A stretch of 64,000 bases of DNA from Candidatus Dojkabacteria bacterium (lineage in GTDB: Bacteria > Patescibacteriota > Dojkabacteria > SC72 > JAFGCJ01), in contig JAFGIK010000026.1 of assembly GCA_016929645.1 (NCBI GenBank), forward strand, positions 14,288 to 78,287. The letters run 5' to 3'. This document shows positions 3,801 through 63,266 of the stretch, piece after piece. The notes below the pieces were generated by a model. That model ran no database searches. It was not told where the DNA came from and saw only the letters and a program-made list of their open reading frames with translations. Position 1 is the stretch's first letter. Every line of letters starts with the position of its first letter. Made by a program: the position numbers and the translations under genes.

Positions 3801-4820
3801 ATGATACATTTCGACCAAGTATCAAAATTTTATAACCCTGACATAGTAGCACTAAAAGATGCCTCTTTTAACATAGATACTGGAGAATTTTTATTTATCG
3901 TAGGTCATTCAGGAGCAGGAAAATCAACAATTATAAGATTACTTATTAGAGAAGAACTCCCAACCAAAGGACAGATTAAGTTCGACGACATTGATCTTTC
4001 AGCGTTAAATCGGAAGACATTACCATTATATCGACAAAAAATCGGAGTTGTTTTTCAGGATTACAAACTTTTGGAAAATAAAACCATCAAAGAAAACATC
4101 GAATTTGCTTTAGAAATAACCGAGACACCAGATAATGAAATTAAAGATACAACCGATTACTTACTTGAAATAGTTAAACTACAAGATAGACGAGACGTAT
4201 TTCCTTCTCAATTATCTGGAGGAGAAAAACAAAGAGCAGGAATTGCCAGAGCAATTGCAAATGACCCAACAATATTAATAGCTGATGAACCTACAGGAAA
4301 TCTTGATCCAGAGACAGCAGGAGAAATAATGGAGCTGTTACAAAAAATCAATAATTGGGGAACAACTGTTATTATTGCAACACACGCAAAAGAAATTGTT
4401 GATCAGATGCAAAAGAGAGTTATTAGGCTAGAGAAAGGCCAAATAGTCAGCGATATGCTAGGATTTTATCAAAACGAAAAAAAATCCAACAAAGCAAAAG
4501 AAAGTAAACCAAATAACAACAATGAAATCAATTTAGAAGTAAAGGAAAAGCAAGAGTCAACAAGAGAAGTTGACGAAGAGCAGGAACATGCAGAAAAAAA
4601 ATCTAAAAACGTGGAACAAGGATCCATATCAATAAGAGAGCTAAATATTTCTGAAAAGTTTATGAGAATCCTAGAAGAATCAAATATCACTACGATCGAC
4701 AAGTTACTAGATTTAAGCGACGAAGACTTAGGCCAAATAAAGGGATTAACAATGCACGATATTGAAGAAATTCTGTTAAAATTACAGGAATATATTACCG
4801 ATCAAACACAAAATGGCTAA
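3801..4820 (+). CDS. ftsE: cell division ATP-binding protein FtsE with about 110-aa C-terminal extension ending in an RpoA alpha-CTD-like helix-hairpin-helix domain
   Basis: Walker A GHSGAGKST, signature LSGGEKQR, 4-bp gap to prfB; C-terminal ISIRELNISEKFMRILEESNITTIDKLLDLSDEDLGQIKGLTMHDIEEI resembles alpha-CTD HhH. Confidence 0.8.
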   Translation: MIHFDQVSKFYNPDIVALKDASFNIDTGEFLFIVGHSGAGKSTIIRLLIREELPTKGQIKFDDIDLSALNRKTLPLYRQKIGVVFQDYKLLENKTIKENIEFALEITETPDNEIKDTTDYLLEIVKLQDRRDVFPSQLSGGEKQRAGIARAIANDPTILIADEPTGNLDPETAGEIMELLQKINNWGTTVIIATHAKEIVDQMQKRVIRLEKGQIVSDMLGFYQNEKKSNKAKESKPNNNNEINLEVKEKQESTREVDEEQEHAEKKSKNVEQGSISIRELNISEKFMRILEESNITTIDKLLDLSDEDLGQIKGLTMHDIEEILLKLQEYITDQTQNG

Positions 4821-5811
4821 ATCAAAAAATAAAGCAACAAAGCCCACACAAAATATAAATACTAAGCATGAAAAACTGACAAAGAAACAGATATTTTCAA
4901 GAATTTTCAGAAATACACGCAAAAATATACTAAGAAATAAATGGCTATCGCTTGCTACAATAATTGTAGTTACAATAACATTCACCATAGCTACACTATT
5001 TCTTGCGCTTACTGTAATTTCAAGCCGTACCATAAGTGTTTTCGAGCAAAAAGCACCAATCATAATCTATTTCGAAAATGACACTGAAGAAAAACTAATC
5101 CAAGACGTAAAAAAACAGATTGAGGACACAGGTTTAGTAAGTGAAGTTGATTACCTCGATAAAGAGCAAGCACTTGAAAGATACAAAAGTTATTATGATG
5201 AATACCCAACTCTTGTCGAATCCTCAACAACAGAAGATGTTCTCCCCACTCTACTGGTAAAACCTAAAAGTATTGAAAACATGCCAGAGCTCAGCGACAT
5301 TTGTAACGACATAAAAAGCAATACTTCAGAGATCAACGATATTTGGTATTTCAAAGATGTAGTTGATACACTTCGCGGAATATCAAAAGTTATCAAAATT
5401 GGTGGGGCCATACTTGTAGTAAGTCTTTCTTTAATGTCTATCGTATTAATATTGATTGCTATTGGATTTAATATTAATTCGCATCGAAAAGAGATCGAAG
5501 TTATGAATTTAATAGGTTCTACAGATTTTTATATCAAGATTCCATTTTTATTAGAGGGTATGTTCTACGGAATTTCTGGTTCACTCATTGCAGTTATCAC
5601 AATTCTAGTATTGTGGTATGGTTCAATATTTCTTATGCGAGACAATAATCTATTCGTCCTCGTTTCCGGATTGTTTACTGATATACAGATGACTTATCTC
5701 AAGGAATTTAATATAATATTCTTGCTTACATTAATTTTAAGCGAGATCCTTGCAGGTTCTCTAATCGGTTTTCTTAGCAGTCAACTTGCTATAAGAAAAT
5801 ACCTAAAATGA
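4813..5811 (+). CDS. ftsX: cell division permease FtsX
   Basis: 332 aa, overlaps ftsE stop by 8 nt, 4 C-terminal TM helices with large periplasmic loop. Confidence 0.75.
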   Translation: MAKSKNKATKPTQNINTKHEKLTKKQIFSRIFRNTRKNILRNKWLSLATIIVVTITFTIATLFLALTVISSRTISVFEQKAPIIIYFENDTEEKLIQDVKKQIEDTGLVSEVDYLDKEQALERYKSYYDEYPTLVESSTTEDVLPTLLVKPKSIENMPELSDICNDIKSNTSEINDIWYFKDVVDTLRGISKVIKIGGAILVVSLSLMSIVLILIAIGFNINSHRKEIEVMNLIGSTDFYIKIPFLLEGMFYGISGSLIAVITILVLWYGSIFLMRDNNLFVLVSGLFTDIQMTYLKEFNIIFLLTLILSEILAGSLIGFLSSQLAIRKYLK

Positions 5812-27263: not shown

Positions 27264-28031
27264 ATGGAAAAACAATTCAAAGGATTAAATAGATTCAATA
27301 TATTTATGGGGGCATTACATTTGCTACAAGCTCTTGCAGTCTATTTCATAAGTGATCCTGATAAAGGCATCGTTCCAATAACCATTAATTATCTAGAATA
27401 TGATCAAATCGCTGCAAAATTATTACCTGCAACTAAAGAAGTATTTTCAGTAAATTTGGCTTGGTTTGTTGTTATCTTTTTTCTGTTAAGCTCTGTTGCT
27501 CACTTTTTCATTGGAACTATTTATATGAGTAAATACGAATCAGATCTAAAACTCGGGATTAACAAAGTTAGATGGTTCGAATATTCACTTAGTGCAAGTG
27601 TCATGATGATAGCAATAAGCTTACTATCTGGGATCTATGATTTATCAAGTCTTATTATGATTTTTACACTTGACGCACTTATGAATCTATTAGGACTTGC
27701 AATGGAAAAAGAAAATCAAGGGAAATCAAAGCTGAATTGGTTAACTTTTATACTCGGCTGTATAGCAGGAATTGTCCCATGGATTGTTTACGGAATTTAT
27801 GTTTATGGGGCAAGTCAATATGGAGGAGGAAATATTCCAGATTTCGTTTATTGGATTTACGTGTCTATCTTTTTGTTCTTTAATAGTTTTGCTGTAAATA
27901 TGTTTTTGCAATATAAGAAAATTGGACCTTGGAAAGATTATCTGTATGGAGAAAAGGTATATATTATATTAAGCTTGGTAGCAAAGTCTTTACTTGCATG
28001 GCAGGTATTTGCTGGAACATTGAGACCATAG
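27264..28031 (+). CDS. heliorhodopsin (7-TM retinal protein)
   Basis: Recalled heliorhodopsin motifs all present: N-terminal FNxxxGxxHLLQ, VRWFEYSLSASVM, GCIAGIVPW, FLFFNSFA, YIILSLVAKSLLAWQVF (Schiff-base Lys). Confidence 0.75.
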   Translation: MEKQFKGLNRFNIFMGALHLLQALAVYFISDPDKGIVPITINYLEYDQIAAKLLPATKEVFSVNLAWFVVIFFLLSSVAHFFIGTIYMSKYESDLKLGINKVRWFEYSLSASVMMIAISLLSGIYDLSSLIMIFTLDALMNLLGLAMEKENQGKSKLNWLTFILGCIAGIVPWIVYGIYVYGASQYGGGNIPDFVYWIYVSIFLFFNSFAVNMFLQYKKIGPWKDYLYGEKVYIILSLVAKSLLAWQVFAGTLRP

Positions 28032-35407: not shown

Positions 35408-37300
35408 TTACTGTTTAAAATCAGAATCCTTGGATACCGGATTTGGCTCTGCGATCTTTATTAAATCCGACGCCTTCATGATTATTGATCTATCACGTCT
35501 ACCAGCATTAAACGCTACCTTTTCCTTTTCCCAGAAAGATTTATCAATATATGTCTCAATCTCGAACAATTTTCCAAAAGGTGGAACAGCTCCAACTTTT
35601 ACCCCAAGCTCTGACTCAACAAACTCAGGGTCAGCAAACTTAAGCTTTTCGCCTACAACAGCAGAAGCTTTTTTCATATCAAGCTTCTTATCCGCAGGTA
35701 TACAGACCATAACAAGGCCTCCATCAGGTTTGGTCAAAATCATCGCTTTTGGTGCAATATCCATAGGGGTATTTCGCACTTCAGCCGCCTCTTCCGAAGT
35801 TTTTACAGATCGATGTTCGATTACTTCATATTTAACATCCTCAGAATCAAGCAATCTTTTCAATCTGACAAAAATCACATCACTTTCCTCACCTATATTA
35901 ACAGCCAATCCTAATTCTTTTAGGTGGTCGGGATTTGCAATAGATGGTGCATCCATAACAGATGTTCTACCACGTCTTGTCATTGGAAAGGCAATTGTTT
36001 CTTTTAGAGATTGCTCATTTGCAAGAAGCATGATAATTCTATCAACACCCAGAGCTAATCCTCCATGAGGTGGGGTTCCGAGTTCAAAGGCCTTTACCAT
36101 ATGTCCGATAGCTTTCATCATATCTTCCTCAGAATATCCCATTATCTTGTAAGTCGCTTTCAATACTTCAGGATCATGCGCACGGATACTTCCACCACCT
36201 ACTTCAAGACCATTACAAACAAGGTCATACTGAGTTGTCATTATTTTATCAATATTTTCACCTTTTAAGTGCCATTCTATATGCTCATCAACTGGTTTGC
36301 TAAATGGGTTATGAGTAAATACCCAGCCACTTCTACTTTCTTCAACTTCACTTGCGTCCTTTCGGTCAACTTTCTTGAAAAAAGGAAACTTCACAACCCA
36401 AGCAAATGCAAGTACATTAGCTTTTTTCTCCTCTTCTGTTCTTAGATCAAACTTATCTGCACCATATTTTTTTATCGCTTCATCATAAGGAATTACAGGG
36501 AATGGATCTTCTTTCAATTTAGATCCAACAGCTTTTACAGCCGCTTTGACAGAATTTTCAACAGCACTCATAACCTCAGATTCATTAACAAAACTCATTT
36601 CTAAATCAAGTTGTGTAAATTCGAATCCTCGATCAAACTTCAAATCTTCATCTCGAATACATCTGGCTAACTGAAAATATCTATCTACACCAGCAGTCAT
36701 AAGTAGTTGTTTGTATTGTTGCGGGCTTTGAGGCAAGGCATAAAATTTGCCGGGAGCCATCCTTGATGGGACAAGGAAATTTCGAGCTCCCTCAGATGTT
36801 CCCATAGACAGAAGTGGGGTCTCTACTTCTGTAAAATCCTGTTCAAAAAAACCTTCTCTTAATGATCTAACAAAATTTGACCTCATAACGAGAATATTGT
36901 GCATTCGTTCTCTTCGTAAATCCAGATATCGATATTTCAACCTTAATTCTTCATCGATTTCATACCCATCACTTTTTACAGGAATTGGTAGTTCTTTGCA
37001 TTTATTAAGAACTTTATATTCAGAGACATCGATTTCAATTGTTCCTGTAACTAAATCCTTATTGACACTGTTTTCTGGTCTTTTATTTACTTTTCCAATA
37101 ATTTCAATAACTGATTCATCAGAAAGCTTATCCCCTTTTTTAGTAATAACACATTGGATAATACCTAACTTATCCCGAAGATCAACAAAAGTTACACGTC
37201 CATGATCACGCAGTGTATCAACCCATCCTTGTAGTTTTATAGTTTCTCCAACTTTCTCATTTGCTTGTGCAGTAAGAGTTCTTGATAAATTTGGATTCAT
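35408..37300 (-). CDS. aspS: aspartyl-tRNA synthetase (short form, apparently lacking GAD insertion) fused to C-terminal YbaK/ProX-like aminoacyl-tRNA deacylase domain
   Basis: Class II motif 2 FRDEDLKFDRGFEFTQLDLEMSF, motif 3 GGGSIR...GLALGVDR; C-terminal about 160 aa with GAVPPFG signature of YbaK/ProX. Confidence 0.85.
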   Translation of the reverse strand: MNPNLSRTLTAQANEKVGETIKLQGWVDTLRDHGRVTFVDLRDKLGIIQCVITKKGDKLSDESVIEIIGKVNKRPENSVNKDLVTGTIEIDVSEYKVLNKCKELPIPVKSDGYEIDEELRLKYRYLDLRRERMHNILVMRSNFVRSLREGFFEQDFTEVETPLLSMGTSEGARNFLVPSRMAPGKFYALPQSPQQYKQLLMTAGVDRYFQLARCIRDEDLKFDRGFEFTQLDLEMSFVNESEVMSAVENSVKAAVKAVGSKLKEDPFPVIPYDEAIKKYGADKFDLRTEEEKKANVLAFAWVVKFPFFKKVDRKDASEVEESRSGWVFTHNPFSKPVDEHIEWHLKGENIDKIMTTQYDLVCNGLEVGGGSIRAHDPEVLKATYKIMGYSEEDMMKAIGHMVKAFELGTPPHGGLALGVDRIIMLLANEQSLKETIAFPMTRRGRTSVMDAPSIANPDHLKELGLAVNIGEESDVIFVRLKRLLDSEDVKYEVIEHRSVKTSEEAAEVRNTPMDIAPKAMILTKPDGGLVMVCIPADKKLDMKKASAVVGEKLKFADPEFVESELGVKVGAVPPFGKLFEIETYIDKSFWEKEKVAFNAGRRDRSIIMKASDLIKIAEPNPVSKDSDFKQ

Positions 37301-41426: not shown

Positions 41427-42461
41427 TTACTTAGCCACTTCTCTTACTTTTTTTTCAACCTCGATCGCTAGTTTTTTATCTTCTTTTAATAAGGAAATCG
41501 CAGACTCCTGACCTTGAGCAATATTCTTATCACCGTACTTGACCCAAGCTCCACTTTTCGAAAAAACTCCATATTTAACAGCAGCATCAAAAAGGCTACT
41601 TTCTTTATCAATCCCATGGGGATACCTAATCGTAAACGTTGCTTCACGAAATGGTGCAGCTACCTTATTTTTGACAATCTTAACTTTGCGAATATGTCCA
41701 ACAACTTGATCACCTTCAAGGATCTTCTCCTTTTGTCTTATATCCATCCTTATAGAAGAGTAAAATTTCAAAGCATTTCCACCAGTAGTTGTCTCAGGAT
41801 TTCCAAACATAACCCCGATCTTCATTCGAATTTGATTAAGGAATATGACGGTAGTATTAGTCTTACCACAAATAGCAGTTATTTTTCTTAGAGCTTGAGA
41901 CATTAATCTTGCTTGAAGTCCCATGTGACTATCACCCATATCGCCTTCAATCTCAGCCCTCGGGGTCAATGCTGCAACAGAGTCTATTACGATAACATCA
42001 ATAGCAGAAGATCGAACAAGAGTCTCCAATATTTCTAAAGCCTGCTCACCAAAATCTGGCTGAGAAATATATAACTCTGCAATATCAACACCAATGCTTT
42101 TAGCGTAAACAGGATCTAAAGCGTGTTCTGCGTCAATAAAAGCAACCTTACCACCTTGCTTCTGTGCTTCAGCTAAAATATGCAAGGCCAAAGTTGTCTT
42201 GCCTGAGGATTCTGGACCAAAAATTTCGATAATTCGGCCACGGGGAATACCTCCGACACCAAGTGCTAAGTCAAGTGAAATCGCACCTGTGGAAATAACA
42301 TCCACATCTACTTTACTTCTTGAACCAAGTTTCATTATTGAACCCTTACCAAATTGACGCTCAATATGCTCTACTGCGGCAGAGATTGCTTTAGATTTAT
42401 TCTGGTCTTCAGGATTCTGGGCAGATTTTTCTTCGCTTTTTTTCGGTTTATTTGTTGTCAT
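41427..42461 (-). CDS. recA: recombinase RecA
   Basis: Walker [10 protein letters not shown], whole-length RecA similarity. Confidence 0.95.
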
Positions 42462-60950: not shown

Positions 60951-60981
60951 TACCAGACCCGACTTGAACAGGCACCCCACT
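60951..60981 (-). other. tRNA-Pro-like 3' fragment (anticodon-loop GUGGGGUG fused to T-arm and acceptor 3' strand)
   Basis: Minus strand reads AGTGGGGTG-CCTG-TTCAAGT-CGGGT-CTGGTA; T-loop identical to tRNA-Pro at 61902-61975. Confidence 0.35.
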
Positions 60982-61115
60982 ACTCCCTTTTGGTAGATGT
61001 CTTAATCGGAAGAATCGTACTATGTACAAACATATTCTTCCTTCTATTGATACAACAGTCTCGTAATGTTCTAGAGCTTAAGAATAAGCGGAAGTTTTTA
61101 TTTGAGATTCCTGAG

Positions 61116-61613
61116 TTAATTTGAATATAACCCTTTATCAGTCATCTGAGATTTAAGTCCTTTGCGTGGGAATTTGATTCTTAAACCATTTGACAGTTTA
61201 AGTTTTAGCATCTGGAATCGATCTCTGTGTAAGGCACTTTTATCCCAATCCAAATTTGGATACAATTCAATCAACGTTTCAATCATATCTTTTGTTGTAA
61301 ATTCAACATGCTCCCAATCAGACTCCCTATTTTCTCCTTTTTCTGGTTCAATAACCTCTATAATATCTATTGAAAAATCATTATATTGAATAGGATTATT
61401 TAAAATGAATATCCCTATTCTTCTATCATTAAAAGTAGTTTCCTCACCAAGTAAGGAAATTGACAATAGTTCAGATTTAATTTTTTCATAATCCTCACTA
61501 GAAGAGGTTTGATATCCTAGATGATCTAAATCCAAATTATCTAAATTTATGCCTGCAGCATTAAAAGCTTGAAAAAATTTCTCAAGGAAATCTTTATATG
61601 AATCAATTAACAT
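61116..61613 (-). CDS. hypothetical protein
   Basis: 165 aa ORF between tRNA fragment sites. Confidence 0.4.
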   Translation of the reverse strand: MLIDSYKDFLEKFFQAFNAAGINLDNLDLDHLGYQTSSSEDYEKIKSELLSISLLGEETTFNDRRIGIFILNNPIQYNDFSIDIIEVIEPEKGENRESDWEHVEFTTKDMIETLIELYPNLDWDKSALHRDRFQMLKLKLSNGLRIKFPRKGLKSQMTDKGLYSN

Positions 61614-61843
61614 TATTTATCTTGTGTAAATTTAAAATATATTTGTTCGGAAGTAGTCTGATAACCTATTGAAAATTGGTAATGCCAGACGACTCTCGTT
61701 TCCCTCGCTAGATACATAGATAAAACCTGATCCATGTATCCACACCGATTGCCCTGCAAACTACTGAGTCTATAATCACCACAATGTACATTATATGTAT
61801 ATGGTCGGATGGCAACCCCACGGCTCCCTTTTAGATGTATAAA

Positions 61844-61885
61844 TCGGGGTGACTCGACTTGAACGAGCGACCCCACGCACCCCAT
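61844..61885 (-). pseudogene. 3' half of a second tRNA-Pro(GGG) (anticodon loop to discriminator)
   Basis: AUGGGGU-GCGUG-GGGUC-GCUCG-UUCAAGU-CGAGU-CACCCCG-A; acceptor strand complements the 5' half at 62015-62053. Confidence 0.55.
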
Positions 61886-61887
61886 TC

Positions 61888-61990
61888 TGTCAACTTACAA
61901 ATCGGGATGACCCGACTTGAACGGGCGACCTCACGCACCCCATGCGTGCGCACTAGCCAACTGTGCTACATCCCGATTTGTAAGTTGACA
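61888..61990. repeat. perfect 15-bp inverted repeats (TGTCAACTTACAAAT / ATTTGTAAGTTGACA) immediately flanking the intact tRNA-Pro, extending its acceptor stem to a 22-bp helix
   Basis: Read directly at 61888-61902 and 61976-61990. Confidence 0.7.
61902..61975 (-). tRNA. tRNA-Pro (anticodon GGG), intact
   Basis: Hand fold: CGGGAUG/CAUCCCG acceptor (C1-G72), D GCAC/GUGC, anticodon stem CACGC/GCGUG loop AUGGGGU, variable AGGUC, T-arm GCCCG-UUCAAGU-CGGGU, discriminator A. Confidence 0.85.
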
Positions 61991-62014
61991 TCTTTCCCCA
62001 ACATGGGAAACGTC

Positions 62015-62053
62015 TCCCCATGCGTGTGCTCTAGCCAAATGAGCTACACCCCG
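62015..62053 (-). pseudogene. 5' half of the second tRNA-Pro(GGG) (acceptor to anticodon loop)
   Basis: CGGGGUG-UA-GCUC-AUUUGGCUA-GAGC-A-CACGC-AUGGGGA; combines with 61844-61885 into a perfect cloverleaf. Confidence 0.55.
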
Positions 62054-62219
62054 ATTCAAAAATCAACATTTTCCCTCTACTCGAGGGGCATCTCCCCATA
62101 CTACGCACCGACCAATTTACCTAGAATTCAATACCATTTCATAAAATATTTACGATAATATCATAAAACAACAGTAATCTTACTAAATCAATACTAGTTA
62201 TCAATCAGCAATAAATCAC

Positions 62220-63266
62220 CTACCTCTTTATCTCAATTATTACTTGACTGGGAGAATCACTTTTGGAAATTTTGTATGTCGTTTCCTTTGTTAACTTAAA
62301 CGTATATGTGCTTGTTCCACTTGCAAATGATCCGGACATGCTTGGTGAAATGCCAGAAAGCTCGGTATCAATAACATTATCGGTTCCACAAATTGAATCC
62401 TTTTGTAAATTTGAAAATTTTACTGTAACCGTCTTATTGGTAGCATTATATGTCGCAGTAACTGGTGGAATTTTATTTGCTGAATTGGAAGATGTTTCCC
62501 AAACAAATTTCAGAACATCACCTTCAATAGCCCATGAGTATCTTACTAGGCTGACATCACCACTAGAGTTCACAGTTGAGAAAGTTTGGGTATTATTTGA
62601 AAAAACATTTGGGTCTGCAACGGCATCTGTATCATCTTCATCATCTGAGCCACTACTATCAAAATCACCAGAATCATCGTCAGCGGCATCATCAGGACCA
62701 TTACTCATATCTGGATAAATTACATCAAGCCAAACACTTAAGCCATCGCCTTCTCGCAATCTAAATTCGACATCACTATCAATTCCAATATTATAAATTG
62801 ACTCATTCTCATTACTGCTGATTGCATGATAAATATTTACAATACCATCTTGATTAACAGTTCTAGAGCTTTGATAGGCAATTCCACTGTTATCTGTTGA
62901 AACTCCTTTTATAATAACTTCAATATATCCAGATGCTGAATTTAAGCTAGCTGTAACCAAAGGCAATTTTGAACTGCTTGATTGGAATTTAAATTCAAAT
63001 TCATGGTAGTCCGCAACTCTAGAATCCTCAATCGAAACCAGATCATAGTCTACGTCTTCATCGTATTCACCGATGGCCTGTGCATCCATTGAAAAATCAA
63101 CAATGTCTTCAGTACCAGTATCTTTGTCATCGTTTGTGGAACTATCTGAATCGTTGCTGGAATCATCAGTAGTCTCATCTTTTTTACATCCACTGAAAAG
63201 CAAAGAGAAGGAAACAATTAATAAGATAAAAAATGAAGAAAATCTTTTCAATGAGAGTGATTTCAT
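62220..63266 (-). CDS. acidic low-complexity lipoprotein
   Basis: Lipobox LLFSGC after signal peptide; Asp/Ser-rich. Confidence 0.5.
   Translation of the reverse strand: MKSLSLKRFSSFFILLIVSFSLLFSGCKKDETTDDSSNDSDSSTNDDKDTGTEDIVDFSMDAQAIGEYDEDVDYDLVSIEDSRVADYHEFEFKFQSSSSKLPLVTASLNSASGYIEVIIKGVSTDNSGIAYQSSRTVNQDGIVNIYHAISSNENESIYNIGIDSDVEFRLREGDGLSVWLDVIYPDMSNGPDDAADDDSGDFDSSGSDDEDDTDAVADPNVFSNNTQTFSTVNSSGDVSLVRYSWAIEGDVLKFVWETSSNSANKIPPVTATYNATNKTVTVKFSNLQKDSICGTDNVIDTELSGISPSMSGSFASGTSTYTFKLTKETTYKISKSDSPSQVIIEIKR

Follow-up and report, generated by a model that had tools for sequence, protein, structure and literature searches.

A complete tRNA-Pro(GGG) gene within the anticodon loop of a second tRNA-Pro(GGG) gene in a genome of Candidatus Dojkabacteria

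The DNA analysed here (the window) is a stretch of 64,000 nucleotides with a GC content of 34.6% from a metagenome-assembled genome (MAG) of Candidatus Dojkabacteria, which belongs to the Candidate Phyla Radiation (CPR), also called Patescibacteria. On its minus strand, at positions 62053-61844, a tRNA-Pro(GGG) gene is interrupted exactly in its anticodon loop by a complete gene for another tRNA-Pro(GGG) of slightly different sequence. The locus is best understood as a stack of nested tRNA-Pro(GGG) copies, in which a diverged module consisting of leader, tRNA and trailer has recently entered the resident gene at its anticodon loop and in which the inner tRNA alone is functional. A probability of about 0.6 is given to this interpretation. 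In the following, the outer tRNA is referred to as type A and the inner one as type B.

The inner tRNA was identified as tRNA-Pro(GGG) by ARAGORN and obtained 56.4 bits with the Rfam tRNA model in the 900-nt region 61500-62400. The two outer halves, when joined, were also called as tRNA-Pro(GGG) by ARAGORN. Both tRNAs form perfect cloverleaves with an identical anticodon, and no stem-breaking change is present in the outer halves. An earlier reading of the DNA made from the letters alone (the sequence-only reading) had described an intact inner tRNA flanked by perfect 15-bp inverted repeats and a flawless second cloverleaf made of the outer halves, and both descriptions were confirmed by inspection of the sequence and by these predictions. 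In the native context the outer tRNA was not called by ARAGORN while the inner tRNA was intact, and only the latter was reported. Once the inner tRNA had been randomised, the program called a 136-nt intron at the canonical position, in agreement with the site of interruption proposed earlier. This insert is non-coding, consists mostly of tRNA and separates two collinear halves. The whole region is predicted to fold as nested cloverleaves (z = -6.4). When the whole window was scanned with Rfam at the gathering threshold, the inner tRNA at 61902-61975 was missed, although it reaches 56 bits in the 900-nt region; this is presumably a filter effect of the nested, repeat-rich context.

Along the minus strand the locus consists of two successive units of leader plus 5' half, followed by two successive units of 3' half plus trailer, and each piece begins with ATGGGG. 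An equivalent description is that of a type B leader-tRNA-trailer unit within the anticodon loop of a type A unit (Table 1). The resident outer 5' half thus runs into a leader and not into its 3' half. The four copies of ATGGGG are found at 62099, 62021, 61943 and 61885 and thus lie 78, 78 and 58 nt apart, and the repeat search delivered two head-to-tail repeats bounded by this motif, one of 78 nt (D1) and one of 58 nt (D2), each in two copies. The leader of the outer unit (L1, 46 nt, 62099-62054) is homologous to the 46 nt preceding the inner tRNA (L2), with a local alignment score of 33 against 15.7 +/- 3.2 for shuffled sequences. Both leaders share the start ATGGGG-AGAYG, a hairpin in corresponding position whose stems differ, and the end ...AAA.ATGT..A......AAT. 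Their identity is 63%, while the 78-nt repeat D1 which contains the leader is 72% identical. A scan for sigma-70 promoters revealed none at the left end of the modules, the nearest candidate being located at 62204-62177.

Table 1. Features of the nested tRNA-Pro(GGG) locus and of its older layers in the window.
Feature	Position	Strand	Remarks
Candidate decayed 5' half of oldest layer TAGGTAAATTGGTCGGTGCGTAGT	62100-62123	-	abuts ATGGGG directly; weak, not significant
Leader L1 of outer unit	62054-62099	-	ATGGGG AGATG, hairpin CCCTC/GAGGG, end ...AAAATGTTGATTTTTGAAT; homologous to inner spacer
Outer tRNA-Pro(GGG) 5' half, type A, positions 1-37	62016-62053	-	CGGGGTG...CACGC ATGGGG
Leader L2 of inner unit	61976-62015	-	AGACG, hairpin TTTCCC/GGGAAA, left inverted-repeat arm
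25-nt spacer, part of L2	62015-61991	-	AGACG TTTCCC ATGTTG GGGAAA GA; its CCCATG complements CATGGG
Left inverted-repeat arm TGTCAACTTACAAAT	61990-61976	-	15 bp
Inner tRNA-Pro(GGG), type B, contiguous	61902-61975	-	ARAGORN; Rfam RF00005 56.4 bits; perfect cloverleaf; CCA not encoded
Trailer T2: right inverted-repeat arm ATTTGTAAGTTGACA (61902-61888) + GA	61886-61902	-	arm includes discriminator A, 61902
Outer tRNA-Pro(GGG) 3' half, type A, positions 32-73	61844-61885	-	ATGGGG TGCGTG...CACCCCG A; D2: 90% identity to inner 3' half
Trailer T1 TTTATACATCTAAA, then truncated start of older 3' half AGGGAGCCGTGGGGTTGCC	61808-61843	-	D5, D9; part of copy 1 of the ~61-nt repeat
Second copy of the ~61-nt direct repeat (3' end of a decayed tRNA + T1-like trailer), into decayed type-B 3' half	60955-61031	-	D3, D5, D9
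Third, decayed type-B 3' half AAGGGAGTAGTGGGGTGCCTGTTCAAGTCGGGTC	60989-60955	-	downstream of yecM; local alignment to inner 3' half

Of 74 positions, 9 are not the same in the outer and the inner tRNA. Three compensated pairs (acceptor pair 5:69, one in the D stem and one in the T stem) and three unpaired sites account for the differences, so that the divergence in acceptor, D and T stems noticed earlier is real and compensated throughout. The pair 5:69 spans both outer halves. The leaders being 63% identical and the differences between the tRNAs being only compensated or unpaired, it follows that the two tRNAs diverged as intact, selected genes before nesting occurred. The nesting is thus much younger than the divergence of the tRNAs, which disfavours a duplication in place followed by decay. 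Two options are left by this pattern: either a diverged module was inserted recently, or the outer tRNA has continued to function.

A related arrangement was identified in a second genome. A total of 185,579 species genomes were scanned for the end of the 5' half, which delivered 73 loci, nearly all from Patescibacteria. The matched copy belongs to an intact tRNA-Pro(GGG) gene in 72 of them. At the exception, L016, an orphan type-B 5' half is followed by the junction ATGGGG/AGATG, a homologous leader and an intact type-A tRNA. The leader of L016 is 72% identical to L1 and 63% to L2, and the hairpin is present in all three leaders with differing stem sequences. The order of the tRNA types is reversed relative to the window and the site is a different one. 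No outer 3' half was found within 1 kb downstream in L016, and what precedes its orphan 5' half bears no relation to the leader. L016 originates from a relative within the Dojkabacteria whose proteins share 48-73% amino-acid identity with those encoded by the window at 37.7-42.4 kb. Its tRNA is located near recA, and the same holds for L029 and L064 with their plain tRNA-Pro(GGG) genes; no tRNA is present in the neighbourhood of recA in the window (41427-42461). That one junction and leader recur at two non-syntenic sites, where the tRNA types follow each other in opposite orders, indicates that the insertion allele was formed or copied more than once.

At the site of the stack itself, a plain, uninterrupted tRNA-Pro(GGG) gene was found beside the 348-aa ORF (open reading frame) in the syntenic but more distant locus L011. 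Such a gene in relatives had been named by the sequence-only reading among the observations that would refute its proposal. Homology between the leader of the module and the native leader of the L011 tRNA was not significant. Modules with an AGAYG leader were sought more widely. L016 was the only one among the 73 loci from the species genomes, and a metagenome scan for the pattern of leader plus tRNA gave 0 matches. In viral contigs there were 0 matches for the tRNA pattern and one spurious coding match for the leader pattern. A second metagenome scan produced one unrelated match and two interrupted tRNA-Pro genes with an insert different from that of the window. In these two (L080, 4739-4909; L081, 205-1 on the minus strand), a type-B-like tRNA-Pro(GGG) is interrupted after ATGGGGTGT by an insert common to both. 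This insert has no Rfam match and may be a group I intron present only in part, or a different kind of element; in both cases the contig breaks off within 150-180 nt.

Partial tRNA copies in a nested orientation are not limited to this locus. In a set of 124 tRNAs, mostly from Patescibacteria, the called tRNAs were masked and each tRNA was compared with its own 300-nt flanks, using a score of at least 28 for 5' halves. Copies of the 5' half were detected 20 times upstream and twice downstream, and copies of the 3' half 13 times downstream and once upstream. The partial copies are thus oriented as in a nest in 33 of 36 cases (binomial p = 2e-7). They are co-oriented with the tRNAs that they flank, among which are Pro(GGG), Pro(CGG), Ala(GGC) and others. 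A second full nest was recognised in L058, with an outer 5' half (6743-6706), an inner tRNA (6650-6574) and an outer 3' part (6523-6491). There, the two outer acceptor strands fit together and are distinct from those of the inner tRNA, the D arm is broken and GC-rich hairpins occupy loop positions. L068 (3578-3413), the orthologue of L058, retains the 5' half only. Outer copies that are truncated or interrupted by hairpins (CCCGCC...GGCGGG at D, anticodon and T loops) were found in L041, L078, L063, L066 and L006/L033. As a rule, the outer copies are dead, and the outer halves in the window are most likely pieces of a young pseudogene. Another fragment-flanked tRNA is located in L026 at ~4700-4971. 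The CCCGCC-loop-GGCGGG hairpins may represent a small family of repeats that prefer hairpin loops as sites; in the Shapirobacteria loci L009, L010 and L035 a GC-rich hairpin overlaps the first bases of an intact tRNA.

The head-to-tail arrangement invites the explanation that two independent partial tandem duplications arose in place by slippage between ATGGGG microhomologies, and that selection kept those duplications which left one intact gene, giving the appearance of a nest. The 78-nt and 58-nt repeats bounded by ATGGGG are those expected of simple tandem duplication, and the homology of L1 and L2 is in line with it. L063 and L078 are clear cases of tandem partial duplication with identical leaders, the copies of L066 have overlapping extents, and survivorship would explain the bias of 33 to 3 in orientation. 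An interrupted tandem copy is expected to diverge without regard to structure. Against this expectation, the leaders have drifted to 63% identity while the 9 differences in 74 positions of the tRNA halves are all compensated or unpaired, with three coordinated pairs of which one (5:69) reaches across the halves. If the outer copy evolved at least at the rate of the inner one, at most 3 changes stand against about 9 expected (p about 0.02), and none of them lies in a stem. The orphan 5' half of L016 is preceded by sequence without relation to the leader, so that this copy is no tandem duplication, and the position of both joints in one and the same loop would have to be a coincidence. Duplication in place is therefore considered an improbable explanation of the locus.

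The second option, continued function of the outer tRNA, corresponds to a nested precursor from which the inner tRNA is freed by RNase P and RNase Z (or by RNase III acting on the 22-bp helix described below), while the outer halves are trimmed and ligated or work as a split tRNA. The perfect outer cloverleaf, the canonical 136-nt intron accepted by ARAGORN with the inner tRNA masked, the compensation of all stem differences and the predicted nested fold would all fit such a precursor, and Patescibacteria are rich in tRNA introns (PMC13011429). As in group I tRNA introns, the insertion lies in the anticodon loop and the joined halves give a perfect tRNA-Pro(GGG). However, a cmscan of 61500-62400 at E <= 10 yielded the inner tRNA only, with no group I core. 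A bulge-helix-bulge (BHB) motif, defined by two 3-nt bulges carrying the splice sites, a 4-bp helix between them and the involvement of anticodon-loop and intron bases near the 3' splice site, could not be drawn at the junctions by inspection. The insert ends with ...GACAGAAUGGGG, and no partner of CCAU type for AUGG is present beside the 3' junction. The hairpin TTTCCC/GGGAAA of the spacer and the CCCATG complement of the loop exist as described from the sequence; the complement lies 10 nt from the 5' junction, and the spacer before the inverted repeat measures 25 nt instead of the roughly 30 nt given originally.

Homologues of RtcB and of splicing endonuclease, which the sequence-only reading had suggested to look for, were absent from the ~55 ORFs of the window in a Pfam scan. 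The halves are collinear and 136 nt apart, in contrast to split tRNAs with separate loci, own promoters and complementary extensions. Cuts by RNase P and RNase Z would leave tails of 40 nt and 16 nt on the outer halves, and an outer tRNA sharing its anticodon with the inner copy would be redundant. Homologous arrangements elsewhere, namely in L016, L058, L068, L041 and L078, display orphaned or decayed outer parts. Continued function of the outer tRNA is disfavoured because of the missing group I core and BHB motif, the lack of a ligase or endonuclease in the window, the shared anticodon and the orphaned or decayed state of outer copies elsewhere. A functional nested precursor is thus very unlikely, and the evidence speaks against the tRNA-containing intron or split tRNA proposed from the sequence.

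The possibility of an assembly artefact, where two strain variants of one tRNA locus would have been stitched together by the metagenome assembler, was also considered, as the source is a MAG and the two tRNA types might be allelic. Between the junctions and the remainder of the locus, shared stretches measure only 6-11 nt and include no long k-mer, which is too short for mis-joins based on k-mers. Moreover, the independent MAG containing L016 displays the same left junction of 5' half, ATGGGG and AGATG, and nested partial copies occur in many other MAGs from different studies. An artefact is very unlikely under these circumstances.

The presence of a module with the same left junction in two genomes raises the question of how it moves. 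One proposal is a dedicated mobile cassette, a protein-less element of leader, tRNA and trailer that would be moved in trans by a recombinase or transposase recognising the anticodon stem-loop of tRNA-Pro(GGG), with crossover within ATGGGG, and that would replace the gene it disrupts. The left junction CACGC ATGGGG/AGAYG together with a homologous leader in three modules, two genomes and non-syntenic sites speaks for it, as does the conservation of the leader hairpin despite changed stems. The 6-nt repeat at both joints resembles a target duplication or a crossover core. The anticodon arm CACGC-ATGGGGT-GCGTG has the form of a recombinase core site, comparable to att (attachment) sites in anticodon loops. 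On the other hand, no integrase, transposase, recombinase or reverse transcriptase was detected among the ~55 ORFs of the window by the Pfam scan, and the inverted repeat is neither terminal nor present in the other two modules. The module exists in a single copy in the window, further modules with an AGAYG leader were absent from the viral and metagenome contigs and, L016 excepted, from the 73 loci, and L016 lacks the right-hand outer half. Such an enzyme-driven cassette is rated as improbable. The broader idea, that the module is a new kind of protein-less cassette which targets the tRNA-Pro(GGG) gene of the chromosome at its anticodon loop, destroys this gene, puts its own tRNA in its place and by repeated invasion builds up nested layers, is only slightly less doubtful.

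Two mobile-element proposals of the sequence-only reading survive in part. A tRNA-carrying miniature inverted-repeat element comes closest to the data in that a module with the same left junction occurs at non-syntenic sites of two genomes, but the inverted repeat is non-terminal, unconserved and present once, so that the module hardly conforms to such an element as usually understood; multiple copies, as expected of miniature inverted-repeat transposable elements, were not found within the 64-kb window. As for a scar of integrase recombination, 3' halves of the tRNA do pile up downstream as at integration sites, being repeated at 61943, 61885 and 60989, but 5' halves are duplicated upstream and no integrase is encoded in the window. 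The insert itself contains no integrase, and the fusion between a resident 5' part and an arriving 3' part that is typical of integration was not observed.

The flanks of the inner tRNA were found to be complementary over an unusual length. Inverted repeat and inner acceptor stem together form a 22-nt, 100% complementary helix (I1 in the repeat search), as had been stated earlier, and this helix is the sole long complementarity in the locus. Even when up to 2 mismatches were allowed, no other copy of the 15-mer was found in the 64-kb window. Among the 128 tRNAs examined, a coaxial helix between leader and trailer reaches 14-15 bp at the inner tRNA and at most 2 bp at the other 127. Chance does not account for the arrangement. 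The right arm stops 2 nt short of ATGGGG, whose 6-nt repeat is present, and the left arm follows only after the first 25 nt of the insert. Of the three modules compared, both related ones are devoid of the inverted repeat. Since neither the related modules nor the other tRNAs examined have conserved it, the helix probably represents a scar and not a signal that evolved. A templated event, such as fold-back synthesis primed from the acceptor-stem hairpin, would best explain it. In folding predictions, the inner acceptor stem reached a pairing probability of 0.996. With the inverted repeat scrambled the mean was still 0.71, and with a T1-like trailer the value was 0.987, so the predicted effect on folding is small. 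A role as folding clamp against mispairing of inner and outer parts was rejected, as no mispairing was predicted with or without the inverted repeat. Incidentally, it could act as a processing or clamping helix.

Traces of older layers were identified downstream of the stack and, tentatively, upstream of it. A third 3' half (60989-60955) aligns with the inner 3' half at a score of 40.5, the background being 13.1 +/- 2.6 with a maximum of 26. A direct repeat of ~61 nt, comprising the tRNA 3' end, the trailer and the start of the older 3' half, occurs at 61868-61808 and 61031-60970 on the minus strand with an alignment score of 55 (background 19.4 +/- 3.6), and its first copy takes in the end of the outer 3' half. 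On the other side, a candidate trace at 62123-62100 is placed just as the orphan 5' half of L016 is. The ~61-nt repeat brackets a segment of ~840 nt holding yecM (61116-61613), which looks as if it had also been acquired by recombination anchored on the tRNA. In L001, L003 and L004 an intact tRNA-Pro(UGG) is located directly upstream of yecM. Apart from an NCBI entry for Candidatus Dojkabacteria to which it is 100% identical, homologues of the YecM-like protein of the window reach at most 73% identity. In the window, a weakly alignable remnant of tRNA-Pro(UGG) upstream of yecM (61800-61655, minus strand) does not allow any credible tRNA call, and a hidden tRNA between stack and yecM was discarded as only a junk call at the 70% threshold was obtained. 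The tRNA-Pro(UGG) which relatives carry at yecM thus being not callable here, that of this genome would be located elsewhere or lost. An ORF of 90 codons (61613-61885, minus strand) runs from the ATG of the outer anticodon loop to the start of yecM without any Pfam match; it is probably spurious, yet unusually long for AT-rich non-coding DNA.

From these data we infer the insertion of the module, its direction, the route of recombination, the maturation of the inner tRNA alone and the origin of the inverted repeat. In the proposed sequence of events, a module of ~130 nt (40-nt leader, type-B tRNA and ~16-nt trailer) would have entered the anticodon loop of the resident type-A gene evolutionarily recently, with the 6-nt ATGGGG ending up repeated at both joints. 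The type-A gene would itself have arrived earlier as a similar module inside a still older type-B gene, of which a decayed 3' half and perhaps a 5' trace would survive. RNase P together with processing at the 3' end would release the inner tRNA from an extended transcript produced by read-through, before CCA is added, and the outer halves would be discarded as leader and trailer and would decay as in other genomes. Entry of the module most likely proceeded by general recombination, either as a RecA-dependent exchange in which the tRNA halves served as homology arms and an existing insertion allele was copied, or alternatively as a microhomology joint at ATGGGG. Homologous recombination or microhomology is favoured because recA, recX and recJ are present in the window and no recombinase or transposase was seen there; we think that a dedicated enzyme is less likely.

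Several observations weigh against a recent insertion that left only the inner tRNA functional. No empty-site allele of the type-A gene turned up, nor did any donor copy of the type-B module, so that insertion and direction have to be read from the divergence patterns alone. The flawless outer cloverleaf would be equally expected of a functional outer tRNA. In L066 (5950-5400), the upstream and downstream copies overlap by ~37 nt, which is more readily explained by partial duplications that arose independently than by one insertion. The 62123-62100 trace is not significant as a 5' half, with p about 0.1 in gapped alignment and 10/32 matches in ungapped alignment, a value reached by 16% of the background.

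No description of nested, split or fragment-flanked tRNA genes in CPR was found in the literature. We rate the locus as a variation on known tRNA-gene disruption and recombination scars. Genes for tRNAs are known as integration hot spots with displaced tRNA fragments, as at the att sites of genomic islands (e.g. Williams 2002). The locus shares with these sites the co-oriented repeats of the 3' part after an intact tRNA, the crossover in the anticodon loop and the 61-nt repeat bracketing the yecM segment. It differs from them by an insert of ~130 nt which has no integrase and carries a whole tRNA gene, and by a resident 5' half that is left unjoined upstream, so that 5' halves also accumulate upstream. 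The nearest paper deals with group I introns in tRNAs of Patescibacteria (PMC13011429). There, as here, a tRNA gene of the same phylum is interrupted in the anticodon loop and overlooked by standard finders, whereas the insert of the window is 136 nt long, mostly tRNA, and without ribozyme core or apparent self-splicing. Archaeal tRNA genes are disrupted by BHB introns or occur as split and permuted genes (PMC4090602, PMC3218864). The canonical 37/38 interruption, a functional RNA within the intervening sequence and a long helix beside the junctions are common features. In Archaea, the intron of tRNA-Trp encodes a C/D box RNA. Unlike the archaeal genes, the window comes from a bacterium, has no BHB motif and no known endonuclease or ligase, and its helix belongs to the inner tRNA and not to the outer halves. 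As in nested transposable elements, related units would have been inserted successively, each into the same site of the preceding one, and older layers are more decayed; in contrast to them, the unit is protein-less, has no terminal repeats and replaces the function of the interrupted gene. In rRNA processing stems, leader and trailer form helices that are cut by RNase III. The 22-bp perfect helix formed by the flanks of a structured RNA inside a longer precursor is reminiscent of these stems, but it flanks a tRNA and is not conserved in the related modules or the other tRNAs examined.

With regard to the surroundings, the stack is preceded in the window by a radical-SAM gene and the 348-aa ORF, whose product is 100% identical to an NCBI entry for Candidatus Dojkabacteria and for which no homologue besides itself was found. 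Elsewhere in the window, the gene at 35408-37300 (minus strand) encodes a class II aminoacyl-tRNA synthetase of Asp/Asn/Lys type fused to an editing domain of YbaK/ProRS type (PF00152 + PF04073), which is an unusual combination, and a heliorhodopsin gene at 27264-28031 (PF18761, E = 1.5e-92) adjoins a tRNA-Gln gene.

Genomes of CPR/Patescibacteria are tiny and usually contain one copy per tRNA gene, and for this reason the turnover of these single-copy genes matters for the maintenance of translation. Nested loci can mislead tRNA finders and estimates of completeness, as the outer tRNA was hidden from ARAGORN and the inner one was missed by the whole-window Rfam scan. The locus would represent a replacement in progress, in which a resident tRNA gene is split by an incoming diverged copy while older layers decay and a related module exists in another lineage. 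If the cassette explanation were true, related processes would account for the nest-oriented tRNA fragments across Patescibacteria. Together with the bias in orientation, the locus suggests a recurrent, so far undescribed renewal or exchange of tRNA genes by insertion and not by allelic replacement.

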